From NCBI GenBank assembly GCA_030704615.1, contig CM060734.1, positions 59,954,001 through 60,018,000 on the forward strand: a DNA stretch of 64,000 nt, read 5' to 3'. Of this stretch, positions 17,499 through 51,900 are shown one piece after another. The DNA is from Takakia lepidozioides. Its lineage: Eukaryota > Plantae > Bryophyta. Positions within the stretch are counted from its first letter, which is position 1. Every line of letters starts with the position of its first letter. The notes beneath the pieces are model-generated. The model was not told the origin of the DNA. It ran no database searches and worked only from the letters and a program-made list of their open reading frames with translations. A program made the position numbers and the translations under genes.

Positions 17499-18802
17499 AT
17501 GGCGGCGGTAGCGTGTAGCAGTGTGTTTTCGGTGCAGTGTGCTGCGGGGCAGAGGCAGAGTGGGAAGAAGGCCGTTGCTTGTCCGACATTCGAGGGCCTT
17601 TCAAGTCGCTCGCTTGCTCTGAGAAGAACAGAATCCGTCGACCTTAATGCCGAGCTGGAGAGCAAGAGGCCCGAAAGCCGGTCTACTACAGTGTGTGCGC
17701 TCAAGGACCTGAGGGATCGCATTCAGACCGTCAAGAACACTCAGAAGATTACTGATGCCATGAAGCTGGTGGCTGCTGCCAAGGTGCGGAGGGCGCAAGA
17801 GGCTGTGGTGAACGGTCGGCCTTTCTCAGAGAACCTTGTGAAGGTTCTGTTTAACGTCAACGCGCAGCTGCAGAATGAGGACATCGACATCCCTTTGACT
17901 CAAGTAAGCTGCTTTCCGCGACATTGCACTAAATTTGGAGTTGATTCTTTCCATTCGGCGTCAGTGTGAGAGTGTGCGAGCATTTACCTCTTCTTCAACC
18001 TCGCTGACAACTAGATACCCTTTTGGAACGTTACTTGCAGATAAGGCCCGTGAAGAAAATTGCTTTGGTAGTTATCACGGGCGACCGAGGCCTCTGCGGA
18101 GGATTCAACAACTATGTCCTCAAGAAGGCCGAGGAGCGGATGAGACAGTTGAGGGCGATTGGTGTAGAGTATACAGTTGTCAGCATTGGAAAGAAGGGAA
18201 ACAGCTATTTTAAGAGAAGGGAATATATCCCTGTTGACAGGTTTCTTGACGCCGGAAGCGCTCCAACCACTTCGGAAGCTCAAGCTATAGCTGATGAGCT
18301 CTTTTCTTTGTTCGTGAGTGAGGACGTGGACAAGGTGGAGCTGCTGTACACCAGATTCCTGTCTCTAATAAAGGCAGATCCTGTTATTCACACCCTCCTC
18401 CCTTTGTCTCCTCAAGGAGAGGTCTGTGATATCAATGGAAACTGTGTGGATGCTGCCGACGACGAGATGTTCAGGTTGACCACCAAGGAGGGCAAGTTCA
18501 CTGTGGAGGTGGACACCACAAGGACTGAGACACCTGAGTTCACAGGAGTTCTTCAGTTTGAGCAAGAGCCTGTGCAAATATTGGATGCGTTGTTGCCTTT
18601 GTACCTTAACAGTCAGATTCTTCGAGCCTTGCAAGAGTCAATTGCCAGTGAGCTGGCTGCTCGTATGAATGCTATGAGTAACGCCAGTGAAAATGCTTCG
18701 GATTTGAAGAAGTCTCTCTCCACCTCTTACAACAGACAACGCCAAGCTAAGATTACTGGAGAGATTTTGGAAATTGTTGCAGGCTCCAATGTTACAGTCT
18801 AA
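17499..18802 (+). CDS. atpC: Chloroplast ATP synthase gamma subunit with transit peptide; exons 17499-17903 and 18041-18802
   Basis: [45 protein letters not shown], redox-regulatory [26 protein letters not shown]; one GT-AG intron. Confidence 0.97.
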
Positions 18803-27496: not shown

Positions 27497-28844
27497 TTTT
27501 AACGATCACGCTCTCCTTCCTGCAAAAAGAAGCTTCCGCCTATGAGAATGACCGAAAGAGGAAGCCTCAAAAGCCCCTTTGAAACAAAATGAAGAAGGAT
27601 CCAACGACCAAAATCTAAAACACGCGGGTCCTTTCTCGGATGTCATGTACTAATTGTAAAGCAAAAACACAATCTGTCATCAAAACATCACACCTCAGAA
27701 AAAGACGTGGTTCCTTCCTGCAAACGCTTGAGAGACAGAAGCAAGGGTGAGATGAGACAGAGGACAGAGACGACAACTTGAAATAAGCAGAATAAGTTGA
27801 GTGAAGCAGGCCATGGAGATCTCATACCTAGCACGGTGCGATCGGGGTTGAGAATCGTCGATCGATCCAGAGCAACACGGATGGCGGGCACGCTTCCTTC
27901 TTGTTCGCGAGAGCGACGGGCGGGGACACCCATGAGCACGACGGGCCGTCCAATGCACCGTCGACGGCGACCGTTGTGAGTATCCGGGACCCAGGACGGC
28001 CTTTCCAGGCCACCGGAACACGCATACCCACCTGAATTGTCTAGAGCTCCGATTTGGTAATTACCTTGAACATATTATTTTGGTATGCACGTACTAAACT
28101 GAATCATTCAACTCTTTGCCGCCTTCAGCAAATCCTGGGGAAAAGATTTTGTGTTCTGCAGGAGAATTGATGACACTAGTATTAGAGTTATCCGTAAAGT
28201 GAGCCTGAGTTTGGTACCCTGTTTGGACCCCATTTACGGGTTTCATCCTGAGTTTGAGTTAATCCGTAAAGTGCAGAGCACGAAGTCAGAAAAGAGGGCA
28301 CCAAATCATAAATTGGGGATGAGGGCAACCGTTGCTATGGCGCGAGCTCGTGAGCTCTGACCACCTCCGCCTCGACGACTAACAAAACTCGGCACCAAAC
28401 TCCTGCCACCCCCATTTTCCTAGTTTGGTCCCGTGTTTTTTTTTAGTCGTACCGCTTGATCCTGAGTACCCGTCTATGCGGAGGCACTCGCAGCAAGCAT
28501 GTCCGTTCATGGCACCCACAGTCCAACCATCGACGGCCGTGGTAGAAGACGTGGTGTTGGGGCCGGAATCTTTGTGGATGACATAGCACATGAGGTCGAT
28601 TCTGATTCTGATGACTGTGACACTTGATATCAAGTTTTCTTTTACTTTTATTCGGGGCCAATTTTGAAATGGGATGGTTGTGTGTCTTTGTTGTCATGTT
28701 TGCAATGTGTGCATTGGATGCAAATTCCTGGGAACAAACTATCGTTGGAGATGGGGGTTGCATGGACTGCCCGGATTGTTCCTTCAATCTCTTTGGTTTG
28801 GGCAGTGCATTCTCGCATCATTTGATGTTGGTCTCCAAACCATT

Positions 28845-29010
28845 TGTCGTGCGCATACATATCGCTACACAACTACATCGCTGTCCAAAACCACACAACA
28901 CATGTGCACACCACACACTAGTATACCACTAGTCCAACCACTAGGCTACAACTAGTCAGTCACTAGGCTGCCACTATGTTGCCCACTATGGCAGTCACTA
29001 GTTCACACAA
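28845..29010 (-). repeat. LTR segment A (terminal copy, element 3' end)
   Basis: Direct repeat of 29340-29528 with a few substitutions; the internal copy carries about 23 extra bp of CCACTAGTCC units. Confidence 0.93.
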
Positions 29011-29337
29011 TGATAAAGAAGAAGAATACAAGCACAAGCTCATGCGAGCTCACAAAGCTGAAGCATAAACTCAGGCATATATAACCTCATCACTCAAATA
29101 CAAGTCAAGCCAAGTGCACCCCACGCCATGGGGAATCCACACTACGGCGCCATAGCTAGGCGCGGTGAGGCTCAACTCGAGAAAGATGAGCCTCCTGCAC
29201 TTGCCGTGAAGATAACCACTCCAGGGCCTAAATCTGCCTTGACCCCTGGATTGACACTTGGGCCAATCCCAAATGTCAATATGTGAAAGCTAGCTATTTC
29301 CTAGCTAGTTTCACACTAGTGGTAAAATAACTTGACA
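29011..29337 (-). repeat. LTR segment B (3' copy)
   Basis: TGATAAAG...CTTGACA; direct repeat of 40699-41024 with about 5 substitutions and 1 indel counted by eye. Confidence 0.95.
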
Positions 29338-29339
29338 GC

Positions 29340-29528
29340 TGTCGTGCGCATACATATCGCTACACAACTACATCGCTGTTCAAAACCACACAACACATGT
29401 GCACACCACACACTAGTATATCACTAGTCCACCACTAGTCCAGCCACTAGTCCAACCACTAGGCTACAACTAGTCAGTCACTAGGCTGCCACTATGCTGC
29501 CCACTATGGCAGTCACTAGTTCACACAA
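29340..29528 (-). repeat. LTR segment A' (internal copy, directly after the polypurine tract)
   Basis: Repeat of 28845-29010, joined to B through the dinucleotide GC (29338-29339) inside the palindrome GACAGCTGTC. Confidence 0.93.
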
Positions 29529-29538
29529 TCGCCCCCCT
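29529..29538 (-). other. Putative polypurine tract (plus-strand primer)
   Basis: Minus strand reads AGGGGGGCGA immediately before TTGTGTGAAC, the start of A'. Confidence 0.6.
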
Positions 29539-29787
29539 AGCTGGTGCTTAGGTCCCTATAAGTCCAGGTAGCCACAAGATGTGATAGTGACCATAGCCTC
29601 ACTAAGTCCTCCACCACTATCCCTACTACACTCAAACTCGATAGATCAAGAGGCCGGGTGCAAGAGTTGCCCCATCGTTAGTCGCCGTCCTGCAACCTGT
29701 GAACTTGAGCTTGGGATCTCATGTATTGACTCATATGAGCTTGGCCTCCCATGTCTTGTTAGCTGCCTCCAGTCATGTCCACTGCCA

Positions 29788-31464
29788 CTATCCCAAGCAG
29801 TGTGGACACAACCAATCTCCGTCAGGAACCTTCTCAAGAGGTGGTGTCAAGCATCCCATATGCCAACCCCTTGAGCATCGATCACACACCAGCATGGTGG
29901 TTGCCCCTTTGGCAGACCCATAGAGCATGCACCTCAAACCTGCAAGTACCACTGCCAAGTTTGGGTCAACTCTGCCATCGACATTGTGAAGGTGACATGG
30001 CGCACAATTACGCACATGGTCCTTCCAAGTCATGCCATCCCGACCCTCTAAGATCAGGACCCCTGAGGGCAACACCTCTCGAACCCTCAGAATAACACGC
30101 CCTGCAGTAACATCCAGAGTCGTAGGAGCAGTCTGCTGCAAATAAACATAGTCACCAGGGCTAAACCTCCGAACCCCAGGACGATATCCTCCACCACGTA
30201 TAGTGGCATACCTCAACGTATCACGGTGTTGTGCAATGGCAAGGTTTTCAAAAGCCATGGGCATGACTTTCTTGAACAACTCTGCACGCTGATCACATGC
30301 ACGTACCCACACGTCCGGATCGTCAAGGTTAAGGACTTGAGCAGTGTCCCTACGAATGGCTGCAGGCAAATCCGGCTCTCGGCCAAAGAGAAGGAAATAT
30401 GGTGAGAAGGAGGCAAGTGATGCTTGTTTGCTGAACCTGTAGCCCATGGCTAACCAAGGAACCTGAAGATCCCAATCTCCTAGGTGTCCCTTCTGCAAGC
30501 CATACTTGCGCAAACCCCTCTTCACCGTCTGAACAACTCTCTCTGCTAAGCCATCGGCCTCAGGATGATCCCGAGAAGTGGTGTGGTGGTCTATCAAGGC
30601 TTTATCACACAAAGCCTGAAACTCCCCCAAAAACTCTCTCCCTTGGTCCGTGAGTACCTCAGCTGGAGCACCAAATCGGCTAAGCACACGATCCAAGAAT
30701 GCATACGCAGCCCCCTCACTAGCCTTGTCAGGCAATGGAACCAACTCAATCCACTTGGAGAAGTGCTTCACCATCACCAACACATATCTGTGGTGGCGCA
30801 TAGTCAGTGGCAACGGTCCTGCGAAGTCAAGACTCCACCTGTAGCCCAATCCCATGATTGGTAAAGGATGCAACTGTGGTGTAGGGGCGTTGAATGAAGC
30901 ACGCACCCTGTCACACACCATGCACCTAGCCACGAACTGTTGCACCTCTGTATGCATACCACGCCACCAATACTGCCCCTGCAATAAACTGTGAGTGCGT
31001 CGCACTCCAAAATGCCCCAACTCCTCATGGGCATGCCGCACTAACCGTGCACGCTGTGTGGGGTGAGGCACAATCCTCACCCGACCATCCTCCCACACTC
31101 GAAGTAGGTGTATCCCCTCCCACTTGAACCTCTTGGCTCGTTGCAGGATCCGATCCCTCTCCCTGGCAGTCACAGTGACTGCCGTGTCTCCCGTGCGGAG
31201 GTAGTCCAACACAGCCGAATCCTCGTGTATATCTCTGGCACCACCTGGCTCATCACTAGCCTCAGGGTCCTCAGACACTCCGTCTACAGTCATCCCTGTT
31301 GTAGGTCCAACCTGACCTCCCGATGCCAAGATACACAAAAATGCAGATGCGTGCCATCTCGGTACCATCTCCTCGTCCGTCTCACCATGCCACCGAGCTC
31401 CTGTGTCATCCTGCTGGCTCATGCATGGATTGCGACTCAATCCATCCGCATCCCGATTGACCAA
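29788..31464 (-). CDS. Retrotransposon DDE integrase with a C-terminal PHD finger (PHD about 29791-29931)
   Basis: HHCC (HAHEELGHFG...CMVC); D-D-E core (WSLDFAG, LTDQGREF, DGLAERVV); C-terminal CMLY...LVCDRCSRGWHMGCLTPPLEKVPDGDWLCPHC fits the C4HC3 PHD pattern with the second Cys replaced by Tyr. Confidence 0.92.
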   Translation of the reverse strand: MVNRDADGLSRNPCMSQQDDTGARWHGETDEEMVPRWHASAFLCILASGGQVGPTTGMTVDGVSEDPEASDEPGGARDIHEDSAVLDYLRTGDTAVTVTARERDRILQRAKRFKWEGIHLLRVWEDGRVRIVPHPTQRARLVRHAHEELGHFGVRRTHSLLQGQYWWRGMHTEVQQFVARCMVCDRVRASFNAPTPQLHPLPIMGLGYRWSLDFAGPLPLTMRHHRYVLVMVKHFSKWIELVPLPDKASEGAAYAFLDRVLSRFGAPAEVLTDQGREFLGEFQALCDKALIDHHTTSRDHPEADGLAERVVQTVKRGLRKYGLQKGHLGDWDLQVPWLAMGYRFSKQASLASFSPYFLLFGREPDLPAAIRRDTAQVLNLDDPDVWVRACDQRAELFKKVMPMAFENLAIAQHRDTLRYATIRGGGYRPGVRRFSPGDYVYLQQTAPTTLDVTAGRVILRVREVLPSGVLILEGRDGMTWKDHVRNCAPCHLHNVDGRVDPNLAVVLAGLRCMLYGSAKGATTMLVCDRCSRGWHMGCLTPPLEKVPDGDWLCPHCLG

Positions 31465-32750
31465 ACCGGTCGATGCACAACCTGAAAGTCATACTCCTGG
31501 AGTATGAGTGCCCACCGTGCAAGCTTCCCCGTAAGCTTGTCTGACTCCATCAACCACTTGAGTGGCTGGTGATCCGTGACAAGGGTGAAAAGATTGTCGT
31601 ATAGATAGCACCTGAAGTGTGCCACGGCCCACACTGCAGCTAAGCACTCTCCCTCATATGAGCTGTACTTAGCCTCCGCAGCGTTGTTCGAGCGGCTAGC
31701 ATAAGCCACTACGAACTCTCTTCCCTCATCATCCACCTGTGTGAGCACCGCTCCTGCTCCAATCCATATGCAAGCTGAAAGGGACGCCCCCTGATAGGTC
31801 GTCTCAGGATAGGCGCCGAGGTCAACCTCGCCTTGAGCTCTTGAAAAGCTCGTTCCTGCTCATCTTCCCACTGCCACTCCTGGTCCACCTTGGTCAGCTT
31901 GGTTAGAGCTTTTGCAATGGTACTAAATCCCTTGACAAACCGTCTATAATAGTTTGCCAACCCCATGAAAGCTCGAACTCGGCTCACATCCGTGGGGTGG
32001 AATTTGTGCAATGGCCTCTACCTTAGTCTGCTGTACCCCCAATCCTCCAGGATATATCATGTGACCCAGATACTCAATCTGGTTGTGGAAAAACTTGCAC
32101 TTCCCCGGATGCAACTTCAATCCGTGCGCTCTCAAGCGCTCCAATACCACCTGAAGGTGTCTCTCATGCTCCTCCATCGTAACACTAAAGATGATGATGT
32201 CATCTATGTAGCACCGAGCAAAGTCCACCCCTGCTAGAATCCTATCCATGACTCTCTGAAACTCTGCAGGAGCATTCTTAAGCCCAAATGGTAAGAACCG
32301 CCACTGATATAGGCAATCCTTGCCGTGCTCATTGATCCCCCAGAATGTCGTCTTCTGCTTGTCCGCCTCCTTGATTGGCAACTGGTGATATCCGGATCGT
32401 AAATCCAAAGTGCTAAAGGCCTTAGCATGCCCGATGGCATCAAAGATCTCCTCTGGTGTTGGCATGGCATACTTATCGGACTTGGTCTGACGATTTACAG
32501 GCCGGTAATCACCGCACATACGTCTCTCCGTCCAATTGCCATAGACATCCTTCTTGGCTGGCATCACTGTGGCTGAAGCATACTCTCCACCAGAGAGCTC
32601 CACCAAACCTGCCTCCCAGAGATCTTGAGTCCTCATCTGAATCAAAGACCTCTCCATGTCACTGTATCTATAGGGTCTCCGAAAGATTGGCGTGTCAGTG
32701 GCCAACTCAATACGGATCTCTTGACCCTTCAGTGCTCCCAAGTCCTTCAA
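31437..32750 (-). pseudogene. Gypsy reverse transcriptase and RNase H, split by frameshifts
   Basis: RMCGDYRPVN, STLDLRSGYHQ, LPFGLKNAPAEFQ, YIDDIII, YLGH; then VRAFMGLANYYRRFVKGF, VAYASR, YSSYEGECLA, VTDHQPL in successive frames. Confidence 0.93.
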
Positions 32751-33199
32751 ACTGAAGGCAAAGCAATTCCTGTAAGCCCTCAGGAACCGCCGTATACGTC
32801 GTCTCTCTTCTCCGGTGACAATGGGTCCAATGTCAGGCTCCCAATTGTCCTCCGTAACTGCAACCTTAAGTCCAGTGGGCTTAGAGGTAGAGGACGCGTC
32901 CAGTGGTTGCTATGTTGCAACCTCTTGAGCAGTACTCCATCCCTGCTCAGTCAATGACAAGGCCTCATCCTGCCCCATCATCTCATCCTTGAGGACCTCC
33001 TCAACCCGAGAAGAATCCCCAACCTCATCCATCACAGCCGCTTGGCTGCCAACTCCCTCTGAACCTCGAGCACCTCCCACGTGTGCCATGGATGCATGCA
33101 CCCCGTGGTCCTCACATGCTCGCCCCCACTCACTGCCTGTACCGTCTCGGTAGGCAGAGAGACCATTGAGGGAAGTGTACTCCGCACTCTGCGTTGCTC

Positions 33200-34160
33200 A
33201 GCCAAAGCCAAGCTGATAATCCAGGTCAAGCAATTGAGATCCATTGCTTGCCCCAACACTTGACGACGTGATGCCTCAGAAAGAGACGACACCGCCGTGG
33301 TACCAGTGGTAAAACCCATTGCCCGCTCACGCTCGTCAGCATTAGGCTCCACTAACTGCTGCAACTGAGCATCCCACAGGAGGCCAGGTCCACTATCCCG
33401 GAAAGCATGCGATCCTGGGAAGCTGAGCAGTGTAGGTAATGCTGCTCGTGGTTGACCCACCTTGTTGACCACTGCCAAAGGCGAACGGTCATCGTGTCTC
33501 ACACGCTGAGACTGCCTCCTGTGTCCAGAATGTTATCCACTGTGAGATGTGCTGGCCGCTGCACCCCATCAAATGCACGCTTGAGCAGTGCGGGTGGCAT
33601 CAAGTTAGTCCACCATAGCCGTGGACGATGAGCCCGTGACCCACTGTAGCTGCATCTAGCAACACTGCTGACCCAAGCCACGACCGGACTTGATGCACAC
33701 TGGCCATCACCCTGGCCCGAGAATCGCCCATCAGTGGCACATTCTCCAAGATGTATGCTGGAGATACAGCTTGATGAAGCTGCAAGTGGCGCAAAACCCG
33801 CACCATCTCCCAAAACAGACCCGACCTCGAGTCTCGCAATCCATTGCCATGCCCGGCTGATGAATGCCCTTGGCAGGGCCAACCTGCCACTACCAGATCA
33901 ATGGAGCCAACCCGCTCCAAATCCTGCGCCCCCAGCAACGAAATGTCTGCTGGCAAGGCCTGCTGATATCCACGAATTGCAGACACCGACAACAACTCAG
34001 GGTACCGCTGCACCAACTGAGCAACATGGCGAAGTGAAACGCGTCGTGCAGTCTCATCCCTCTCCACATACAGGTAACGCCGAACTCGTACACCTGCCTG
34101 TAACACAGCAGCCAATCCGGTGCTGATCCCGCCAAACAAGTCCAGAAGACAAATGCCTTC
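33200..34160 (-). pseudogene. DNMT3-like C5 cytosine DNA methyltransferase domain embedded in the retrotransposon pol region (frameshifted twice)
   Basis: Ordered C5-MTase motifs: I LLDLFGGISTG, II YVERDE, IV IDLVVAGWPCQGHS (catalytic PC), V RSGLFWE, VI ILENVP, VIII LDAATVG/SRAHRPRLWWTNL, IX ERERAMGF, X RRQVLGQAM, across ORFs 33600-34325, 33499-33882 and 33032-33502. Confidence 0.93.
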
Positions 34161-34279
34161 ATCCGGATACTGCCACACAATAGGTGTGGTGTCCAATGGA
34201 GACAATTGAGGTGGTCCTGGTGCAATCCCCACACTCTCCTCCTCTCCTGACGGTACAAAAGCCTCCACCCAGGCTTGTT

Positions 34280-37087
34280 GCACCCGTCGATCAGCATCCG
34301 CTGCAAATCCTTGCTCGTGCCCCACAATGGAGTCTGAGCAACCATGGTAGGCAACTCCGCCATACCATACATGTCATCCTGCTCTCCCGGAGGTGGTACA
34401 TCCTCTGAATGAGCGTTGCCCTCAAGCAACTCTCTAGGCCAACTCACTGCCGCTGTGAATGCTGCTAGTGTCGGCATCTTGCCTCGCTGGGCAACCGCAA
34501 CTCCTCCTATGAACGTCACAGGGAGCTGCACACGCCGGCCCTCCCCTGACTGCCATGCAGGCCTATAGGAAGCTGACTCCTCCCAAAAATCCAGGGTGAA
34601 GCCCATGGGGTACAACACTGCCCCACCAACCAGGACATCGTATGAGACCGCGTCTGTCACAATGGCCTTGGCTCGCATCACTGAGCCATCTGTAGGGTGA
34701 TCCGGCCGTAGTCTGATAGCCAACTCACGCCGTGTCATGCCCCGAGCCTGCTCCGATCCTCCCAGAGACGTCTGTATCTGGAAAGGACAAGGCTCCATAT
34801 CCGCCTCCGTGAGGCCCAAGCCTGCAATAGCAGCTCTGCCCAGCATCAATGGCTGAGCTCCCGAGTCCAACAAGACCCGCAGTGGCCGGTACCTCTTGCC
34901 TGCCGGTCCACTCAAACAGAAAATGCCATCCTGGTTGTCTAACATGACAACTCCAGGTGTCACCATGGCGCGCTCAATGGCTGGCCTAGCTGGCAGCTCC
35001 ATCAACCTGGCAGCTGCAGCTTGCCATGGCGCCGCCGTGGCAGTCTTGACCCTCAAATCCGAGGATCCCTCCGGCACTACACCTCCCACTATCTCCGCAG
35101 AAGATGAAGTAACCTCCCCACTCTCACAGAGTGTAGCTGCCAGCCTGAACACCTCAGCTGGTCTTACCCCCGGCGTCGCAATCATGGTAGCCGAGAACAA
35201 TGGAGCCTGGCACACAGATGTGGCCGCTCCTAGCAGCACACTAGCTGCCGTAGCCTTGGCAACACTAGGTAGTGGTGCTACCCGTGTAGCTCTCCCCAAT
35301 GGCATAGTAACCTCCGCCTCGGTAACAGTCGGGCGAGAACTAGGTGCCATGGATGGCGTCGACACTGTCTCCGCCAATGTGAATGACTGAGGAAGCCTAG
35401 CCTGACGGCTTGCCTCCCCACGCTGTGGATCCAACTCCACCTCTGCACCTCGTGGCTCAGGAACTCGTGCTGCTCCTCGAGTCACGGCTGCAGCAGACTC
35501 CACCTGCACTAGTGGTAGTGCTGCTCCACACATGAATCCCATGCCTCCCATATCTCCTCCCTCAGGAGCAGGAGGTGGACCATCCGGCCTTAGAGCCGGT
35601 ACCACCTGAGCTGTAGCCATGGCAGCGAGCCTCTGCTCTAGCTGCTGAAGCCGGTTGGCCATGCCTTGGTCAACACCCTGACCTCCGCGTCCTTGGCCAT
35701 GTTGAGCTTGCCCTTGGCCTGCACCTCGTGGCTGGCCACCTCGTCCTCTCTGGGCTGCTCCACCTCGCCCCCGGCCACCATTGTTCCCTTGGAACTGGCC
35801 TGGGCGCAACTCAGGATGCAAACCATAACACTGGGCCTCTCCATGCCCGTGCTTGCCACAATGCCCACACTGCAACTGTGCAGGCTGTGCATGTGCCGGC
35901 CCTTTGCCTCCCTCTGGGCAATCCTTCTTGACATGGGGTCCTCCACATGTCCAGCACACCACATCCGCCCGTTGTTGGCCAGCAAATGAAGGGAGAGACC
36001 CCTGCATCTGAGGTCCTCTCTGCCCTTCCCTGAGCTTCACCTGAGCCCCCTTGTTGCCTTGAGCACGTTGAGGTAGTGGTTGGCTAGGAGCACCACTACC
36101 CCGTGGTGTCTCCTTAGCAAATCCCACCATGACCACTCGTTCCTCCACCATGTTGAGCTCTATCCGCTCTGCCAGCAAAAACACATTTGCTAAGGTGGGT
36201 TGGGCCGCTTGTAGGAGAGTTGCATCCCGCACCCTTCTCCTCAGCTCCTTGTCCAATATCCCATACCAGAATTGGACTGCCTGAGCTTCCGTAACCCCTT
36301 GGGTTACATTTATCAAGCGCCTCATGCGAGTGAAAGCCTCCCTCAAGCTCTCGGTCGGCTTCCGTTGGAACTCTTGCAAGCTCCGCAACTTCTCTGTCCT
36401 CACCCCTTGGTAGTTCCCTCTCAACTCTTCGAAGAACTCCACAACAGGGTTGAAGGCAGGCACGGGTACTAGTGCTGGTGCGGTAGTGGCTTGGGTGGAC
36501 GTCGTAGCTACTGTACCACCAGTCCCACTAGTCCCACTGCTACTTGCTGAAGCTGCCGGTGCAGCGGCAGGTGTAGCCACTGCCCTCGTGGCTCTAGTGC
36601 CCCTAGTGATGGAGACATAGTCGGGTGACCAGTACATCCTCCACTCCTCGATCTCAACCTCATGCCCCCGCCTGAACTCATGGTAATCATCCATAGGCGG
36701 CCCCTCAAGGTGCTGAAACAGCCCTTTCCATGCCATGAAAGGCGTAAATAGTTGTGGATTGCGCATTTGCTGCAAATCACACCAACTATCAAACTCTTGG
36801 ATAAAATCATCCAACTCGATGGTGCCCACCGCCCCAGAGTACCTTCGTGGCCCCTTGGTAGCTCCATACATCTCCTCCATTGTGTCCCACAACAATGGCA
36901 AAGAAACAACTTGCACCGCCGGTATGAGTCCTCCTGATTCACAATCCGAATCAGAACCTTCCGTAGAAGACACAGGAGGTGAAGGTGGCCTAAACCGCAC
37001 ACCTCGTCTCGTGTACCCACTAGTATCGCTAGTGCTCGAACCGGCACTGTCCCCAGCAACTAGTGGCACCTCCGTGTTGACACTCAA
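34280..37087 (-). CDS. Retrotransposon Gag (two CCHC zinc knuckles) and aspartic protease
   Basis: Gag-like LRSLQEFQRKPTESLREAF; knuckles CWTCGGPHVKKDC and CGHCGKHGHGEAQC; protease VLLDSGAQ...DVLVGGAVL. The ORF track starts at 37087 and the first ATG is at 36880. The frame shifts into the DNMT frame near 34280. Confidence 0.88.
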
Positions 37088-37739
37088 CCGGTCATGAACA
37101 TGTCCCTAACCCCCTCTCCACAAGGTAACCGGGTAGAGAACCTGTTGCGGCTTATGGTTTGGAATACTAAGTTCCTAACATAGCCTACACCTGTACCTGC
37201 ATCCACCGCAAGCACTCCTATGGTTGGCTGGTCATCACCTCCAACCTCACCACAGGAGAAACAATGATGGTCTGGCTGGTCATCACCCCAGCCTCACCAT
37301 CGACAGCATGCTCTAGGACTGGCCGGTGATCAAATCCGGACCAATCACCTATAAAAACAAGCGCCCACACAAAACTAGCATGGCGCACAGTCAAGCATGC
37401 AGGTATGGAGGGGATCCAAACACAAGAAATCAGAACGACAACTCCCCCACACCAAAAACAACTCCACGGTGTTGCTCCTGCAAGGACACCCCAGCCCAAA
37501 CCCGGACTGACTCTTGCCTCCACCTACGGAAAGGTCTTGGCCTAATGAGAGGGTGGAAACTACGAGGAAGAGAAGCTAAAGCAATGCCTAACCCCAGCAT
37601 GCCCTCATCCCAACACTCTTCCTCTCCTCTCTTCCCTCACTTGCATGACCATGGGAATATCATGAAGATACTCCTCAAACCGCCCTCCACGAGCTTCAAA
37701 ATTCGGCCTTCAGACCACATGCCAGTCCTTAGGCAGTCC

Positions 37740-39170
37740 ACCAGTGCCTCCACGAGTCAGCACAGGCCGTCCACAGGTCAACACGGGCCACCACAGACCA
37801 GCACAGGCCACACAGCTCACTGGTCACAGCCGTCACAGTCCCACAGGCCACTGGGCACAGCCTGTCACACAGCCCCTCACAGCCCCAAAGGCCTCAGCAC
37901 GGCCTGACCCACAGCCCTCACACACAGCCCTCACACACCGCCCCAAAGGCCTCAGGCACGGCTGTACACAGCCCCTCACTCAGCAACCCCTCACAGCCCC
38001 ACAGCCACTGGGCCCCACAACACCACAGCACACAGCCCGTCACAGCCCCACAGGCCACTGGCACAGCCTGTCACACACTCCCCTCCACTCCCTTCACACC
38101 CACCTTTCACAGCCCCCACAGGCCACTGGCACAGCCTTCACCCCATCACACCACGCCCCTCACTCACAGCCCCAAGGCCACGGGCACACAGCCTGTCACA
38201 CAAGCCCCCAAAGCCCTCACAGCCCCACAGGCCACAGGCACGGCCTGTCACAACAGCCCCCACAGCCCACTCACAGCCCCCCACACAACCCACACACCCG
38301 TCCCAACACACAGCCACATCACCCCACACACTCCCACCACAGCCAAAGCCCCACACGGCCTGTCACAGCCCCCTCACACAGCCCGTCACAGCCCCAAGGC
38401 CTCAAGCACGGCCTGTCACAGCCCTCACAGCACCTCAAGCCCATCACAGCCCAAAGGCCATGGGCACAGCCCCTCACAGCAGCCCCTCACAGCCCCACAG
38501 CCACTGGGCACAACCTGTCACAGCCCGCACACCCGTCACAGCCCCACAGGCCACGGCACAGCCTGTCACAGCCCCGCACCCGCACAGCCGTCACAGCCCG
38601 TCACAGCCCCACAGCCACTGGGCACACATCCTTTCACAGCCCCGCACAGCCCGTCACACAGCCCACAGGCCACTGGGCACAGCCCGTCACAGCCCCACAG
38701 GCCACTGGGCACAACAGCCTGTCACAGCCCCTCACACCCCAAGGCCACGGCACAGCCTGTCACAGCCCTCACAGCCCCAAAGGCCTCAGGCACGGCCTGT
38801 CACACAAGCCCACACCCCACAGGCCACTGGGCACACCTTCCAGCCTCGCACAACCCGTCACAGCCCCACAGGCCACTGGCACCGTCTTGGCACAGCTCGC
38901 ACAGCCCGTCACAGCCCAACAGGCCACTGGGCACAGCCCTCTCACAGCCTATCACAGCCCCGCACAGCCCCACAGGCCACTGGCACAGCCCGTCATCCCC
39001 ACAGCCACTGGGCACAGCCTGTCACAGCCCGTCACAGCCCCACAGGCCACTAGGCACGGCCTGTCACAGCCCCTCACAGCCCCTCACACCCCCAAAGCCT
39101 CAGGCACGGCCTGTCACCCAGCCCCTCACAGCTCACACAGCCTCAGTCAGCCCTTCACACATGCCCCACT
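37740..39170. repeat. About 1.4-kb degenerate minisatellite (CACAGCCC / CACAGGCCACTGGG / CACGGCCTGT units) in the retrotransposon 5' leader
   Basis: Dozens of visible CACAGCC(C) units with extreme C/A strand skew. Confidence 0.9.
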
Positions 39171-39649
39171 CCATGGCCGCTCTGGCAGTTTAGCCATTTC
39201 TCCAAGGGTTTAGCCACGCCAAGCTAGGGTTTGTGTCTCTTGGACTCTAGGCTTCTTTCCACCGAACTATGGTGGCTGTGAGGAAATCAGCAAGGTATTC
39301 TTGCTCTTTCGGCTCCCACACACCACCATAGTAGCCCTAAGCCATGAGGTGGTTGCCACAAACCAAGCCTTCTTTCTCACTTAGCCTCCCCAAACACGCA
39401 CTAAACTCATGGCAAACAACCAAGCCCTGCTGGTTCCCAGCCCTTGTGAGCACTCATTCAAGCACTCTCCTTGGCCATAGCATCTGTCTTAGAGCCTATT
39501 CCAGCTCCCTACACCGCTGCTTCAAGAGTTGCGCTCCCTTCAAGCTTGAAGTTGAAACCCCAACCCCAACTCACATAGGCCCTACAAGTGCTTTTCTTTC
39601 ACTCCAAGTGGAAACCAGCCCTAGACCTTCCGTTCTAGCTCTCTAAAGC

Positions 39650-39990
39650 TTGAAAACAAGAGCCTCAATGGGCTGAAGGCATGCTCCACACATGCCCCAC
39701 CATAAGAGAATCAGCTCCTTTGCTTCATTTCTTGCACCCACAAACCTGAAAATACAAGCTTCAGCAGGCTGAAAGCATGCTCCACATGCCCTACAGGGAA
39801 ACCAGCCCCTTCCTTCCTTTCTTGCACTCCCACACCTGAAAGTGCAAGCCTTCACCAGGCTGATAGCATGCTCACACATGCATTGCCCTCACATAAGGGA
39901 AGTTAGCCCTTCCCTCTTCCTTACTTGCCCTCCAAGCTTGAAGATGGAAGCTTCAATGAGCTGAATACATGCTCCACACATGCAACCTCT
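39650..39990. repeat. Degenerate tandem repeat, about 4 copies with roughly 95-bp period, in the retrotransposon leader
   Basis: A GCTGAA..CATGCTCCACACATG-like motif recurs near 39672, 39768, 39859 and 39960. Confidence 0.6.
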
Positions 39991-40682
39991 TCACACAAGA
40001 GATATCAGCCCCCTATCTTGGCTCCTTGGCTCCTTGATGCTCTCTAAGACAAGACTAAGCACTCCACAGCCTTTGCCAAGCTCCTGAAACCCTAAGGCTT
40101 ACATTTCCAGCCACAAGACACTTCTCTTGTGGTGCAAGAGCTCTTCTTCCAAGCTCTGAAACCCTAGGTGCACATTCCATGGCCTTGCCGCACCTCTTAG
40201 CTCCTGTTCCAGCCCTGCTCTTGCCATGCCAAAAGCCCTCTCAATGCTGAAGCTCGAGATTGAAACCCAATCTCACCATACTCCACAAAGTGCACTGATT
40301 TGCCCCAAGCCAAATCAGCCCTTTCGCTTGGTCTTGCAATCTTTCACACAATGAAAGCTCGCATTCCCAAGTCCAGTTCTCAGCTTTGCCACCAAAGCCA
40401 CTATAACCTGCTCTTGACTGGTCTTCTTCCCAATCGTGCTTGCTCATGCATGTACACAATCTGAAACCATCAAGGTGCTCTGGAATTACCTGCAGCATGG
40501 TGCTTTCATCTCTGAAGCTGAAGATCGCATGCCAAGGTTTACCACCTCGTAACTCACATCGCCTCCGCTTCTAACAACCAAGAGCTCCACGGTGCTCCTT
40601 GCATAACAACCTGGTTTCTCTCATTCTCAAGCAAAAACCACAAGTGCTACAACTAACTCGTATTTGATACTCACAGATACGA

Positions 40683-40698
40683 GCTCATCTTTCTCGAG
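40683..40698 (-). other. Putative self-priming primer-binding site
   Basis: Abuts the inner end of B' and is the exact 16-nt reverse complement of 40864-40879 inside the same LTR. It does not begin with the TGG of a tRNA PBS. Confidence 0.7.
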
Positions 40699-41024
40699 TG
40701 ATAAAGAAGAAGAATACAAGCACAAACTCATGCGAGCTCACAAAGCTGAAGCATAAACTCAGGCATATATAACCTCATCACTCAGATACAAGTAAAGCCA
40801 AGTGCACCCCACGCCATGGGGAATCCACACTACGGCGCCATAGCTAGGCGCGGTGAGGCTCAACTCGAGAAAGATGAGCCTCCTGCCCTTGCCGTGAAGA
40901 TAACCACTCCAGGGCCTAAATCGGCCTTGACCCCTGGATTGACACTTGGGCCAATCCCAAATGTCAATATGTGAAAGCTAGCTATTTCCTAGCTAGTTTC
41001 ACACTAGTGGTAAATAACTTGACA
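40699..41024 (-). repeat. LTR segment B' (element 5' end)
   Basis: Direct repeat of 29011-29337; not accompanied by an A segment on its outer side. Confidence 0.95.
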
Positions 41025-41240
41025 CATTCCTGCCAGAAGAATGCTTGGTAAATCCATCGCATTGAAGTCCACGTGATCAAAGATCGTTCAGGCATTCTTC
41101 TGGTGAGCATCCATGATGCTCCCGCACATACCATACATGTTCGCAAGGGTGGTGAGTAAGAAAATATTTCGCAGGGATCCGCTTTGGATGATGTGAGTGT
41201 GCACCTGCTCACGACGTAGGCACATTCCAATGCAAGGGCT
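41025..41240 (-). pseudogene. PLS-type PPR gene fragment at the retrotransposon insertion site
   Basis: VHTHIIQSGSLRNIFLLTTLANMYGMCGSIMDAH...RMPER is a degenerate PPR motif. The other flank (28800-28844, minus) reads NGLETNI..NAL, also PPR-like. Confidence 0.6.
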
Positions 41241-41336
41241 TGGTATGTTAATAACGTCTACATGGATGCAATGGATAGAAAGGATGGATACAATGGATGT
41301 AACACATCCAGTCTGCATTCCCTAGAAAGGGCTGAT

Positions 41337-41880
41337 CGACCCGCGGTAATAGGTGACACCCGCGGAAATAGGCCTTGTATGCATGCTAACGTGGCGTGAG
41401 CCTGTGCTGGGCTCACGGGCTCCTGGGCTCACAGGCTCACGCCTCCGGGCTCACGGAATAGCACCCCCCGCGCCAGAGGGGAGCGGGAGCACCTCGCGGG
41501 GGAGTGGGGAGGGGCGCCGGACGGGAGTGGGCAACCCTCGCGTGGGGAGCAGGCAGCCCGCGCGAGTGCGAGCGGGGAACAGCGGCGGAGGAGAGCAGGA
41601 GCGCTACGCGAGGGAATGGAAGAATCGCACAGCGCGCGGGATCGAACCAGGATCCGGTGCGTGGCGGATGCGAGGTATGACCACGGAGGTACCCCTCTCG
41701 AATGTGTATCCGGGGCTCTCGCGGCGGTTATAATCGGGACGGGCCAGGCGGGCGCGGGGGCGTTGGGGAGCGGCGCGGCGGGGGCGGGGATTTGACGCGG
41801 CCCCCGCGGGCGGGGTGCCGGGGAGCGCACGGACGTCCGTGCTGTCACTCTCGCTCGTGCGGAATAAACTCGTCGGCGTC
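41337..41880. promoter_or_regulatory. CpG/GC-rich island upstream of the Crinkler-like gene, containing a tRNA-like segment (about 41625-41695, minus)
   Basis: Abrupt GC/CpG enrichment relative to the flanks, followed by TATAAA near 41886. Minus strand has CCGTGGT...CCGCCAC...GGTTCGATCCC. Confidence 0.4.
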
Positions 41881-42352: not shown

Positions 42353-44700
42353 ATGGCGCATACACCTTATGGTAGTATTGAGGCGTTGCTTCAGAATTTT
42401 TTGAAAGAAGAGACTGTTGGAGCTTTTGGTACAAAACTTGCCTCCAGCATGTATACTGTAGCTACATTGCTAGAGATGTCAGAGCAGGAGCTCAATGAGA
42501 TTATGGATGAAGAGTTTGCAGAGGCTGCCAGGGGGGACAGAAGAGGATTCAAGAAAGCAATTTTGTCCAAAAAGCGAAAGCGAACCCAAGGTATTTCAAG
42601 CTGAATTTAGTATCTAATTATGTGGGCTGAAAATTTACCTTAATGATGTCCATTGTTGCTGGGATAGTTATTCAATTGGTTTCCTTTTGTTGTGTATGAT
42701 GCTTTGGTTTGCCCCATGTGTGGAATACGAGCTAATACTTCACTAATTAGAAGTTATGAGAGAGTCTGGTGAACGTTGATGGGTTGCCTAGGGTAGTATA
42801 AGCCCGTCTGTTTTTATGTCTGCAAGTCTGATGATGGGGAGGCTCTTTTAGTGCAAGCAGTCAATGAAGAGAAGATCAAGTGCTTAGGGTTTTGCAGTTT
42901 ATCTGTTTCGTCATTGAGCTGGACTCGTTTTTGTTAGCTCTGAGTTTGTGAATCAACGATCTTTCAGAATATTGTGTCAAACCATTCCTAAGTCCCGAGG
43001 GTTTGCAGATTAGTTTTTTTCTCAGCTATGGCTACTGTAAGGGTTGAGCACCTCAGCACACCTCGAGTGCTAGGACAACAACAATCACTTACTCTCTCCA
43101 TGGTGTCATGGTTGTTGTGTTGTTTAGCACATAAACATGTGCAGTGTGAGATCGCGTTGCCTTGGGCAGTCTGAGCTTGTCTTTTTTTATGTCATAAAGT
43201 TTGATGATGAGGAGGCTTCTTTGGTTGTTGTTTCATAAGAACCATCACGAATCTTAAGTGTCTTATATGTTAATTAATTACTTCATTAATATGATAATTA
43301 CCACCATTGTGCATTTTCTTGCTTCTTGTTGCTCTGTTCTGGTCTGCCTTGCTATGCTTCACTGAATTGTTATTTGTGTCCACCAGAATTGATTGAAAAT
43401 TCTGGAGTATGGATCAGTTCTATGCTGCGGCCTCAGCCTATCAAGCTCCCACAAAACTCTTGTGAGCTAACAGCAGCATTGTTTCCTAATGATCACGGAA
43501 AGCTTCCTGTGTCCAAAATTATCTACTTGAGACTCCGACAGGAGTTGCCCCCTGAGGCATGGGACTTCATCGTGGAGGCCAATGATTCAGAGCTCCCTCT
43601 GAGGCTATCAGGATTGTTGATTGCCAATGTTGTCCCTCCAGTATCAAAGCAGGAAGTATCCTATTTGTGGGAAATTGTTTTAAGACGGTATTCTCTTTGT
43701 ATGACCGGTTCTGCCTGCCTGCTTTGAATATCAAGCTTTCGTTCAGTACTTGTGAAAGGAAGACAGGTACTTCTAGCACCAAAACTATTGGAAAACAGCC
43801 GAGGCCTGACATGCTTGGAATTGCCAGTGGATGCACTTTTCTGGTTGGTGAGGACAAGCTGGCCAGCTTAGCTGCTGCTGAAGACGATATTTTGAGAAAG
43901 ATGAGGCCACTTTGTCCGACGTTTTATGAGGAGGTTCAATTCATTCTCGGCTATATCGCAGCAGGCACAGACTTCCAATGGGTTTATATCAACAAGGATG
44001 GAAAGACGGCAGTTCGAATCAAGCCACATCTTAATGTCACGAGCCTTTATGACCGCCTCCGGTTGTTACTCACCCTTGGCAATGCCTATGAGATCATGAA
44101 GCAGATGGTGGACTCAATCCCGAAAGTGCCAGGCCGGCGGGCAATGTTTTCTGAAGAAGAATGTGGGGATAGGACGATATACTTTCAGCCGAGCAGTGTT
44201 CGGAAGGCAATAAGGAACTTCCCAAGTTATTGTATTGAGAGAAGGACCACTTTTGAACTGATTTGCCAGGCCTACAAAGTTGCACGAGGGGTCCCTTCTC
44301 TTCCGGAGTTAATTTCAGAGCCTGAAATGGATCGTAGACGTACTTATAATATTGAGATCGGTCCACTGGGCTACTCCCCGACGGTGAGGTCGGAGCACGA
44401 TATGAAGCTGTTGGCCCGGGACGTGTTAAAGGCTTTGTCTGTCCTGCATGCGGAAAACCTTGTTCACAGGGATAGCTGAATCTCCATTCAAATTGCCAGA
44501 AGGATTTCAGCCTTTTGCTGATTGGAGCAAGGCCATGTTGGAGGACGGCCACTACACTCCCCAGTCAGATTTGTATCAGCTGGGAGTACTTCTGGAATCC
44601 CTAGATGGCGGTACTGCTCAGAGGTTTATTAGCAGTCTTAAGGGACTGCAGAGGAGGCATTGAAAGATGCTTGGTTACCTCCTGTACAAATTATATGAAA
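42353..44700 (+). pseudogene. Crinkler (CRN)-like SAM-like header + PD-(D/E)xK-like nuclease + kinase-like gene, frameshifted and truncated
   Basis: Exon 1 (42353-42590) is a small helical SAM-like domain (LLEMSEQELNEI...GDRRGFKKAI). Exon 2 from 43387 has RPD...VGEDK, LGYIAAGTDFQW and kinase-like LARDVLKALSVLHAENLVHRD...YTPQSDLYQLGVLL. Frameshift near 43700 and a stop right after HRD. Confidence 0.6.
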
Positions 44701-48159: not shown

Positions 48160-49445
48160 CTTGTGGAGATGTGAGGACATTATTGAAGGCAGGACATCTG
48201 AAAAAGGTGCTGCACATTTTGAACCAACAAGACACTTCTGCAGACTCCATTACTTATGGCAGAGTGCATCAAGAGGAAAGGCCTAGCAGAGGGGAAGCAT
48301 GTGCATGCCCACATGATCCAAAGTGGACTCAAGCCAAACATCTTTGTACTCAATACCCTTGTCAACATGTATGCCAAGTGTGGGAGCTTGGAGGATGCAC
48401 GCCAAGTGTTTGACAAAATGCCTGAACGAGATGTGTCTACTTACATGGAATATAATGATGGCAGGGAATGCCACGCATGGATTTGGTTAGGAGACTTTGA
48501 AGATCTATGAACAAATGATATAGGAGGGGTTGAAACCCAATAAGGTCTCGTTCATTTGTGTTCTAAATGCGTGTGCCAGCCTTCCAGCCCTGGAAAAGGG
48601 CAAAGATATCCATGCTGACACTGTCAGAGCGCAGATTACGCCAGATGTCATTCTGGACACTGCCCTTCTTGCTATGTATGCCAAAGGTGGGAGCATAAGG
48701 AATGACCGTCAAGTGTTCGACACCATGGCTCGCCGGAATTTGGTCTCATGGAATGCCATGATCACAGGATATGCGCAGCATGGCTATGCTAAGGAGGCTT
48801 TCGACAGCTACGAGCAGATGATACGGGAAGGGGTGACACCTGATAAGATCACCTTCACGTGCATGCTCAATGTGTGTGCGAGCCTAGCAGACCTGGTAAA
48901 AGGCAAAGAGGTCCATGCTGACATCGTGAAAGCTGGAATTACGTCAGATGTAATTCTGGACACTGCCTTCCTTACCATGTATGCAAATGTGGGAGCATAA
49001 GAGATGCACGGCAAGTGTTTGACAGTATGCCTCAACGAAATGTCGTCTCATGGAACGCCATGATTGCAGGACATGTCATGAATGGGTTTGGTAAAGAGGC
49101 TGTAGACATCTACGAACAAATGATACGGAAAGGAGTGATGCTTGACAAAGTCGCTTTTACTGGCATTCTCAATGCATGTGCCAGCATGGGAGCCCTGGAG
49201 AAGGCAAAGTGGTCCATGCCAACATCATGAAAGCTGAAATTCTTCCAGATGTCATCCTGAATAATGCCCTTGTTGATATGTATGCGAATTGTGAGAGCAT
49301 GTGAGAACAAATCCAACAAGAAGGCTTGAAGCCCAATGGCATCACATTTACATGTCTTCTCTATGCATGTAGCAGTGGATGAAGGCCATTACTTCTTTGA
49401 TTCCATGAGTGGAGATCATGGCCTCACCCCCACTGTGGAGCATTT
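48160..49445 (+). pseudogene. PLS-class PPR pseudogene
   Basis: Repeated motifs LVNMYAKCGSLEDARQVFDKMPERDV, VSWNAMITGYAQHG, PDKITFTCMLNVCAS, interrupted by frameshifts and stops; ends at ...HGLTPTVEHF. Confidence 0.88.
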
Positions 49446-51424
49446 TAGGGTTCAGGGTTCAGGGTGGTCAACAAAGGCTTGCAAAAGTAACAAAAAGTAA
49501 AAAAAATATTGAACAAAGACAGTAAATTTTAAAGGGGGGCGGTTCGGACCCAAATACAAATGCAATGGAAACCAAGACAAATGCATACAAAGTGCACCTA
49601 TCGTGCCTGAAGGGATGCTATAAAACTATTATGTCTTATGCAAGGCCTCCCGCCCTCGGGAGATAAGGTTTTCTAATTGAAGAATAAGGCACTTTCGTTC
49701 CAACGGTAAGCTTTTTTTTATGTTTGCTTCTCCTTGTTTAGTGACAAAAATCTTGCTCACTATGGGCAAACATGCGCTCAAGGCACTCACAAACATAGGG
49801 TCAAGTCTCAACCCCTAGTTGGAAAACTTTTATGCCCCACCTTCAAAAAGAGGTTCGTACCTCTAAGGAAAAATGGGAGGGATTACCGCATAAGGTCATC
49901 GACGAGAAGGTTAGGTCGGCAGAGGCTTGCACATGCCCACAGTCCTCTGATCGCTCGAGATGAACTCGAGGGAGGATCAACCAAGTCCCTTCTCTCTGAC
50001 CATCGGGCGTATGACAGGGGAACCGTGTAGTTGGGGCTAAATTAGCTTATCCAACATGATTACCATATACCCCCAGCCGCCTTCCCCATTGTAAGCGGTG
50101 GCTAAGATGGCGTCAAACGGAAGGCTCTATACGCCCGTGCTTCGGAAAGAAAAAAAAGCCTCGAAAGTATCCAAGGGTTGGGATTCCCCTTGGAGCCGAG
50201 CACCCCTATCCAAGTTGCCCGGGTTTTGGGTTTCGGGTTTATAAAAGAGTGGAGACAAATGTTACATGCAACAAGATGCGGACCGCGAATGCACCGGGTG
50301 CAATAAGAACACAATCCGAACCAAAAAGTTTTTAAGGGGGGCCGGGTATGGGCGCCTTGAAAAAACTTGTAGATATCTAGATCCTGGGAATCAAAACTAA
50401 GAGCGTTGATCTAGAGAGACAGCAAGCTAGAAAAGAAGTGATGTTGAGACGTTCTAAGATGCGACTGCAAAGATATGCAAAGAGACAAATATATGTGATT
50501 GAAACTATTTCACTGAGATGACAGGAGAATAGTACCCTATCTCTTTTGCTAAAGAATAGACACATTAGAGAACAACTTAGATGCTCATCTAACACGCAAC
50601 ATTCGAAAAGGAGTTTAAAGCATGCAATAGATGATAGCAAACCTAAGGCTCAACAACATAGAAGAAACATTGAGACAAGAAACCTTAGATGCAGATTAGT
50701 AGCCAATTTCTATAAAGTCCCAGACTAGTTTCGCTCAACAAGTGAGCTCATCAGTGGGAGAGAAACGGAATAGGTTTAGGGTTTAGGGTTTACAAAAGAT
50801 TGGAACTATAAATGTAGCAGTATAACAAATTTGAACCGCGAATGCACCGGGTGCAATAGTAGCACAACGTAGACTAAAAAGTTTTGTAGGGAGGCAGTCT
50901 ATGTATCCCGGGTCTGTTGTGCACGCGTATCTCAATATGAACGCCATTCGTCTGAAATATGCGAAGGTCAGAATTAATTCTACACCTATGTAATTGCAAG
51001 AAGAAAAACATAGTAGATGTGCCATTTTTGAAAACTTCCCAAATCCACTTTTATATGGACTAATTCCATTGGGAATTGAGAGCTATGGATTAATTTATAC
51101 CTAAAAAACAGGTAGATTTGCTCTAGTTCATAGCATCTTTTTTTTTTGAGTTTTGGGATGTCATCTTTTACTAAAAAGATATGCAAACCTATTATCTAGG
51201 ATGGCCAGGTGGTAGATGGACAAACGGTTGTAAATTTAAAGTTTTGATGTCTAAGATCTTTTTCATTTAAATTTTATAATAAATAATATCTTCAATGGAG
51301 TGGGACTCTTTACTAAAAATGTTAATGTTATTATTTTTATGAAAAAAAAGAAAAAAAACTCAAATTGTTTTTTTTCCATGGACTCAACATCTTCCGCTTG
51401 TGGTCCACCCAACCTTGCATAATC

Positions 51425-51900
51425 CCTTGGTGTGGAATGGAGGCTTTGGGGATGTATGAGCAAATGAGACCGGAAGGAGTGAAGCCAGACAAGGTCACCT
51501 TCATTTGCGTTTGCAATGCATGTGCAAGGTTGGCAACCCTGGAAAGGAGCAAAGAGGTCCATAGTGACATCATCAAAGCGGGAATAGTACCAAACATCAT
51601 TCTGAACAATAAAATGGTGGACATGTATGTGAAATGCGGCAGCATTGAGGATGCAAAGGGAGTGTTCTACTCTATGGCAGAAAGAAACGTGGTGTCTGGG
51701 AGTGCCATGATTACAGGATATGCCCAGCATGGGTGTGGAATGGAGGCTCTGGGGATATATGAGCAAATGAGGCTGGAAGGGTGAAGCCCAACAAGGTCAC
51801 CTTTGTTTATGTAATATGTTTGCAATGCATATGCAAGCCTGGTAGCCCTGGAAAGGGACCAAAGAGGTCCATGGTGACATCATCAAAGCAGGAATCGTAC
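51425..51900 (+). pseudogene. PLS-class PPR gene fragment
   Basis: EALGMYEQMRPEGVKPDKVTFICVCNAC...DMYVKCGSIEDAKGVF...AMITGYAQHG; frameshifted, with no start. Confidence 0.85.

Follow-up and report, generated by a model that had tools for sequence, protein, structure and literature searches.

The closest known system to the locus described here is KnitGypsy-Dnmt3 of Klebsormidium nitens (de Mendoza et al. 2018, PMC5890265), which is reported to combine Gypsy domains with an intronless, non-permuted Dnmt3-like domain, to bear DIRS-like A-coding-B-A-B repeats, and to be under purifying selection in that domain (Ka/Ks < 0.2). Its methyltransferase (DNMT) is described as lying in one open reading frame (ORF) with the reverse transcriptase (RT) and RNase H (RH), and it showed no activity in yeast, a result which the authors call inconclusive; DNMT3B was likewise inactive there. 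In contrast, the SymbioDIRS-Dnmt3 domains of Symbiodinium produced de novo CG methylation in yeast (PMC5890265). These are likewise retrotransposon-borne Dnmt3 domains accompanied by split repeats, but they occur with a DIRS RT and a tyrosine recombinase, whereas the moss element described below has a Gypsy RT, a DDE integrase (IN), and 4-bp target duplications. The EpiLTRs of Cymbomonas and Euglena (10.64898/2026.05.21.726589) are also LTR elements carrying both a DNMT and a chromatin reader; however, their DNMT, which is sister to DNMT4 and is accompanied by a chromodomain and a DAM, is described as separate from streptophyte Gypsy-DNMT3. Retrotransposons that carry a DNMT have been reported from algae, while a passage of PMC6338049 states that land plants such as tracheophytes lack transposon-encoded methylases; two later papers write "streptophytes" when citing the K. 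nitens work; their supplements, like that of PMC5890265, may include bryophyte sequences. Further literature was consulted in part (PMC12344493, PMC10952607, PMC11982613, PMC8557442, and 10.1101/2021.11.30.470311).

We analyzed a 64,000-nucleotide stretch of the genome of the moss Takakia lepidozioides (contig CM060734.1; hereafter the window), which contains a Gypsy retrotransposon of 12,180 bp (28845-41024) with the order gag-protease (PR)-DNMT-RT-RH-IN-PHD, encoded on the minus strand. The DNMT3-like C5 cytosine methyltransferase of this element (33200-34160, minus strand, ~321 aa) presents the FxGxG-type, PC, ENV, and RxR marks of C5 methyltransferases. Its motifs LDLFGG (34145-34128), VERDE (34067), LPADI (33956), GWPCQG (33884-33867), LENVP (33749-33735), LDAAT (33659), RAHRPRLWWTNL (33636-33601), ERERAMGF (33334), and RRQVLGQAM (33268-33242) run along the minus strand from 34145 to 33242 in the canonical, non-permuted order reported in the preliminary description, which was also correct in placing an intronless domain between the protease (LLDSGA, 34873) and the RT (YIDD, 32210) on the same strand. 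The numbering of C5 methyltransferase motifs is one that we take to apply to this domain. The DNA_methylase match upon which that description had staked its reading is present as well, since the N-terminal DNMT piece matches PF00145 above the cutoff (E=6.9e-13) in a Pfam scan, in which the C-terminal piece by itself had zero matches. It had further called the domain complete, which is true of its motif content and untrue of its reading frame: as assembled, no single reading frame holds all the motifs, which are spread over three and interrupted near 33639 and 33517. The linkers are broken too (near 34297 and near 33040), as are other parts of the element (near 31996, ~31760, and 31465). Extra bases were found at six break sites, all of which lie at short C/G runs, in the short-read contigs of all four runs examined, which collapse many copies and drop rare variants. 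A contig from the single-copy flank was compared to the assembly over 615 bases and had zero differences. Because the break sites fall at short C/G runs and the flank matches without a difference, we consider the window frameshifts to be quite probably assembly errors rather than real lesions.

A profile built from nine family members matched DNMT3A (5e-23) and DNMT3B (6e-21) in the PDB, followed by DRM (8e-10), HaeIII (4e-9), and HhaI (1e-8), and none of its 57 PDB matches was a DNMT1-labelled chain. A liverwort homolog that is 75% identical across the N-terminal 174 residues similarly matched DNMT3A (8e-11), DRM (4e-7), and HaeIII (4e-4). The intact DNMT of a related locus, L109, was modeled from 13 sequences with a mean pLDDT of 58 and a pTM of 0.64, the target-recognition region having a pLDDT <50. 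A Foldseek search with this model yielded exclusively DNMT3-complex entries among the matches listed, with DNMT3A/B at the top (best E 1.6e-12), and the fold alignment with DNMT3A has ~21% identity. Human DNMT3A/B are the best PDB matches of the element DNMT in both sequence and fold. The profile E-values and the Foldseek matches, together with the non-permuted motif order, bear out the original assignment as DNMT3-like rather than DRM. Judged by its profile and fold matches, the domain is a real DNMT3-like C5 methyltransferase; the likeness is one of sequence profile and fold, and our domain tree comprised element-borne domains and five phage enzymes. The five are part of a set of 31 IMG/VR phage-type enzymes, which match stretches of the domain at 29-48% identity, and served as the outgroup. 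This set was considered as relatives and rejected, the DNMT3-type RxRxWxN being absent in the ORF examined. Host DNMT3 proteins, both human DNMT3A/B and Physcomitrium PpDNMT3a/b (PMC6453930), have the same canonical motif order as the element DNMT. The plant host enzymes are, however, described as bearing a C-terminal DUF3444 (PMC6453930), whereas the element DNMT has no introns, and neither PWWP/ADD nor DUF3444 was matched in the element ORFs scanned against Pfam. Of the 43 full domains with the (Gag-)PR-DNMT architecture, 38 retain G-x-P-C and 40 retain E-N. The CpG/CHG ratios of the element (0.54/1.06) and of its flanks (0.42-0.49/1.06-1.20) are similar and uninformative on methylation specificity.

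The remainder of the element follows the Ty3/Gypsy order gag-PR-RT-RH-IN with a DDE integrase. Gag (35843-36880, minus strand) contains two zinc-knuckle-like motifs (35956 and 35869), occupies one open frame with the protease, and matches PF03732 at E=0.005, below the cutoff, while the protease (34520-34900, minus strand; D-S-G at 34867) has a weak Pfam match (E=0.058; relatives 1e-5 to 2e-4). On the same strand, the RT (31944-32909; PF00078, 1.4e-33) is succeeded by an RNase H that is fragmented as assembled (31437-32017; PF17917, 9e-32) and an integrase with H2C2, an rve core, and a C-terminal PHD finger (29788-31488; PF17921, 2e-16; PF00665, 6e-13; PF00628, 6e-9). In place of this integrase type, no tyrosine recombinase was matched among the element ORFs scanned. 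The long 5' untranslated region harbors a degenerate, CACAGCCC-based tandem array (37746-39167) and a second array (39610-40011, ~90-96 bp); the leaders of related loci are much shorter.

One feature overlooked in the preliminary description is a TAG at 32912-32910 that splits the DNMT-bearing ORF from the RT, which opens the ORF behind it. This stop and the following CAA CCA (32904-32912, minus strand) come after the DNMT and a linker, are in frame with the RT, and correspond to UAG-CAR-YYA, the TMV-type readthrough signal (PMC2754532, PMC4132726). Of 80 metagenome loci fetched, 56 span the DNMT-RT stop position, and 55 of these carry a stop there (39 TAG and 16 TAA), with L089 as the sole locus lacking one. 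CAR directly follows the stop position in 52 of the 56. The exact CAR-YYA context, and with it the same stop and 3' hexamer as in TMV-type readthrough, is present in the window and in five loci (L035, L068, L108, L109, and L110). L109 is intact, as a 1369-aa ORF containing PR and DNMT ends in TAG CAG TTA and is followed in frame by 1047 aa of RT-RH-IN-PHD. In four short-read runs, TAG CAA CCA showed no variant at or above 2%, whereas four nearby sites do vary; the stop is also spanned by one 2,173-nt contig of run X12, a run only presumed to be RNA, which is uninformative on expression. The DNMT had been described as a domesticated pol domain. Its strand and its location between PR and RT agree with pol, but it is the last domain of a Gag-PR-DNMT ORF, which a conserved stop closes ahead of the RT; likewise, (Gag-)PR-DNMT without RT accounts for 44 of 164 DNMT-bearing proteins. 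The term domesticated does not apply, since it is the element that captured the domain and there is no domestication by the host. Because the DNMT ends the Gag-PR ORF ahead of the UAG-CAR-YYA stop, its production is predicted to occur at Gag levels, with a minority of ribosomes likely reading through the conserved stop to yield lower amounts of RT-IN. Unlike in TMV-type readthrough, the predicted role of the signal in the moss element would be to determine how much Gag-PR-DNMT is made relative to RT-IN. Two observations argue against CAR-YYA readthrough: the commonest stop context is CAA-CCC (46/56), which belongs to one Sphagnum-like family and departs from CAR-YYA at a single base, and TAA accounts for 16 of the 55 stops. 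Alternatively, ORF2 could be made via splicing or an internal start. Several Marchantia/Sphagnum gene models (P0017, P0019, P0022, P0026, and P0036) run from the DNMT region into the RT or integrase, and their predicted introns likely bypass the conserved stop.

The element is flanked by a 4-bp CATT target-site duplication (28841-28844 and 41025-41028), and its ends consist of two repeats in the arrangement A1-coding-PPT-B1-GC-A2-B2, i.e. a split A-coding-B-A-B rather than a full LTR on either side of the coding region. Repeat A1 (40700-41024, minus strand) starts with TGTCA and forms the 5' terminus. The polypurine tract (PPT) AGGGGGGCG (29530-29538, minus strand), similar to tracts ahead of B in related loci, is directly followed by B1 (29340-29529, minus strand), the 2-bp spacer (29338-29339) of an internal CA-GC-TG junction that joins the right end (B) to the left end (A), A2 (29012-29337, minus strand; starts TGTCA, 98.2% identical to A1), and B2 (28845-29011, minus strand), the 3' terminus, which ends in ...CACGACA. 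The Ty3/Gypsy features of TG...CA termini, a short target duplication, and a polypurine tract are all present. Among related loci, the same layout is whole in L057/L087, L074, and L102, limited to the 3' block in L095, and cut by the contig end in L039, while 11 distinct insertions terminate directly at B1 with an intact polypurine tract ahead. For the 11 loci with both ends, the 4-bp duplication is exact in eight (two of which represent one insertion), matches at 3/4 bases in two, and is missing in one. At the B-to-A joint, a spacer of 2 bp is present in the window and in 8/8 related loci whose junction is intact, reaching as far as L108 and L109 (CACGACA-nn-TGTCA). Most loci have a flush A-to-B joint, and that of L074 contains ~20 extra bases. 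B was absent before A1, as in an A-B-A-coding-B form, in all 21 distinct 5' flanks. A single apparent match to this pattern was rejected, as it was target-site flank and not B. The whole element is nested in another repeated sequence (28231-28844 and 41025-41500), with high contig depth past both ends and with loose contig ends at 41025 that resemble the sequence left of 28845; none of three ORFs in this surrounding repeat had a Pfam match.

Adjoining A1 is a predicted self-primer binding site of 17 nt (40683-40699, minus strand), complementary to 40863-40879 in A1 and 29175-29191 in A2. The 17-mers of the window and of the Sphagnum-like family differ at 10/17 positions, with full pairing in both. 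In 10 related loci, the complement is full in two, 10-12 nt long in four (at another position in one), and shorter in four. The complement in the Sphagnum-like family is located 26 nt behind a TATA, which occurs at that place in 6/10 loci and is absent at the corresponding place in the A repeat of the window. The 17-nt tract and its complement are consistent with self-priming, a known feature of Tf1 and a predicted one of Tcn1 (PMC6317226). As described there, in Tf1/Sushi and the moss Tcn1 chromoviruses self-priming is likewise the predicted substitute for a tRNA primer, but they possess ordinary paired LTRs and a chromodomain, whereas the moss element combines split repeats with a PHD finger and a DNMT.

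Between open lineages, the DNMT is under purifying selection. Its dN/dS is 0.124 for L109-L110, 0.122 for L108-L109, and 0.103 for L108-L110, which resembles that of the protease (0.11-0.13) and exceeds that of the RT (0.04-0.05) among the same three loci; the values near 1 across copies that would speak against a functional domain were not seen between open lineages. The window DNMT had values of ~0.08 versus L038, L039, and L057 and 0.23 versus L108, all near saturation, and dS was saturated in three further window pairs, as it was in many long-distance pairs. The L035 DNMT gave 0.19-0.20 versus L038 and L039. Among decayed copies of a single family, the values were 0.64-0.90, and the DNMT is open in only 7/71 full-span loci.

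Of 46 homologs, 20 are named Marchantia, two Sphagnum, and two Calypogeia, and the window DNMT belongs to a 24-row group with Marchantia/Sphagnum/Calypogeia homologs (SH 100). The profile search returned 133 matches, with a Cymbomonas protein among the best 120 of these. Neither these 120 nor the 46 homologs include a row labelled K. nitens. We scanned 299 proteins and found 164 to be DNMT-bearing, including 51 with the order RT-RH-DNMT-IN-PHD. The 87 domains of this latter type form one group (SH 98). Similarly, all 74 DNMT-bearing RTs are on one side of an SH 99 branch, with 102 other RTs outside; the branch also holds 21 RT rows without a visible DNMT, several of which are short or ORF2-like. 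All trees were FastTree trees with SH support and a midpoint root and carry long-branch warnings. The trees show the DNMT and RT lineage to be long associated, but the origin is not dated thereby because the tree rows were picked by similarity searches. The large sister group (P0040, P0042, P0043, P0045, and P0330-P0419), which includes the Cymbomonas protein, carries the DNMT within a single ORF, flanked by RNase H and integrase, together with a PHD, and several members have G-W-E-C instead of G-W-P-C. The position of the DNMT has changed within one retrotransposon lineage. In deeper relatives (P0247, P0217, P0261, P0234, P0361, and P0310), a single protein continues from the DNMT into the RT uninterrupted by a stop, which makes these candidates for a K. 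nitens-type layout. The summed contig depth of the element in run X1 was ~1e6 versus 43 for the flank, which supports the description highly repeated, not a copy number.

Domain order, DNMT3-likeness, the in-frame stop, purifying selection, split repeats, and 4-bp duplications were seen directly, and the reading of them that we favor, and regard as reasonably probable, is that a DNMT made at Gag level via a leaky stop is packaged and methylates the element's own cDNA before integration. Most ribosomes would stop after the DNMT, and a minority would read UAG-CAR-YYA through into RT-RH-IN-PHD. Fused to Gag-PR, the DNMT would be packaged and thereby be the first to meet the cDNA, the protease would free it from Gag-PR-DNMT, and it would then methylate the cDNA ahead of integration. 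Minus-strand synthesis would be primed by the element's own RNA. Because priming at the polypurine tract and at the self-primer site would make B-GC-A the copied unit, the copied LTR would extend from the one to the other and the TG...CA integrase ends would be internal to it. An integrase cut at CA-GC-TG would create A-coding-B from a one-LTR circle or by two cuts, and joined cDNA ends combined with such a cut would create A-coding-B-A-B; A-coding-B can also come from B1-B2 recombination. A symmetric two-LTR-circle model predicts A-B-A-coding-B, and such copies were found in 0/21 distinct 5' flanks. The IS30/IS3 junctions may be parallels to the CA-GC-TG junction, though we give them no weight here; no matching paper on integrase cleavage of 2-LTR junctions was found in the literature searched. 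Methylation may protect the cDNA, pre-mark it, or govern the junction. A more ambitious version of the last option, which we think distinctly doubtful, envisions an overlooked, ancient green-plant Gypsy lineage with attachment sites inside a permuted LTR, integration from CA-GC-TG junctions, a DNMT3 loaded into particles at Gag level via readthrough, and strand-specific junction methylation that chooses which of the two junctions is cut. The junction CGACAGCTGTC does contain CG and CHG sites, and, if true, this proposal would explain both the co-travelling of DNMT3 and split repeats from Klebsormidium to mosses and the A-coding-B-A-B layout as the sole form seen.

An active DNMT might instead work in the nucleus upon integrated copies or insertion-site chromatin, for self-silencing or self-limitation, rather than upon particle cDNA. 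The kept catalytic motifs and low dN/dS are compatible with any substrate, PMC5890265 names slowed transposition as a possibility, and the integrase PHD reader hints at chromatin targeting; yet the fusion to Gag-PR places the DNMT in the particle precursor, and in the sister group its position between RNase H and integrase (51/164 proteins) likewise makes it part of a particle protein, such that we find a nuclear role unlikely, if credible. Less probable still is a DIRS/Ngaro-like replication in which A-B-A-B is inherited by template switching, with the DNMT serving as a passenger or DNA-binding scaffold of little catalytic importance. The repeat layout does match that of DIRS-type elements (Fig. 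4c legend, PMC5890265), and the lack of A-B-A-coding-B among the 21 flanks fits as well, but the DDE integrase, TG...CA ends, 4-bp duplications, and polypurine tract, with no tyrosine recombinase match among the element ORFs scanned, are at odds with it, as are joints of which A-to-B varies (~20 extra bases in L074) while B-to-A keeps its 2 bp. As for a passenger DNMT, the inactivity of the KnitGypsy DNMT in yeast (PMC5890265) is countered by retention of the catalytic Cys motif in 38/43 domains. It is extremely improbable that this one copy recently captured a host DNMT3 retrocopy or nested insertion, or that it is an assembly chimera. Only the frameshifted state of the window copy speaks for such an origin, whereas dozens of loci, as well as proteins of Marchantia, Calypogeia, and Sphagnum, share the position and frame, 74/74 DNMT-bearing RTs share one side of the SH 99 branch, short-read cover is even across PR-DNMT-RT, and the intact L109 already contradicts it. 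Nor was there a sign of the separate target-site duplication by which the preliminary description would have recognized a nested insertion, with the DNMT in frame with gag-PR in L109 and the DNMT-bearing RTs in one group.

The combination of Gypsy, Dnmt3, and DIRS-like repeats is therefore already known from KnitGypsy-Dnmt3, with which the moss element, compared by description only, shares its Gypsy domains, its Dnmt3-like domain, and its split repeats. The moss element departs from it in having a land-plant host, a highly repeated family, and a conserved stop between the DNMT and RT. Readthrough, self-priming, a CA-GC-TG junction, target duplications, and a PHD were not found in the accessible description of KnitGypsy-Dnmt3 (PMC5890265). 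The literature searched, mostly without subscription papers, yielded no description of moss/liverwort DNMT3-Gypsy elements, of the readthrough stop, or of the CA-GC-TG junction, which suggests that, as far as this literature goes, the land-plant hosts, the readthrough split, and the end anatomy with its internal junction are new. Some Marchantia/Sphagnum gene models labelled cytosine methyltransferase or hypothetical are these elements, which affects bryophyte DNMT counts, and finders requiring paired LTRs and flanking duplications (PMC6317226) are expected to miss split-repeat ends. Marchantia polymorpha is a transformable model with relatives of the element, which makes the use of the enzyme to the element directly testable, and the conserved stop and internal junction provide handles on expression and on an unexplained integration mode.

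Several other features of the window lie outside the element. A chloroplast ATP synthase gamma gene with one intron (17352-18802, plus strand) has 89-90% identity to Sphagnum, 87% to Ceratodon/Physcomitrium, and 82-85% to liverworts, values that on this one gene point to a moss-like host. A non-LTR-type RT ORF (11863-14248, minus strand; PF00078, 2.5e-29) has a second ORF behind it, and its end (11863-11913) matches 60828-60878 in inverted orientation. Repeats spaced at 303 bp with short, broken ORFs (48444-52218, plus strand) are presumably PPR-like, and a 297-aa ORF (43586-44479, plus strand) has a weak kinase-like end (PF00069, E=0.015).
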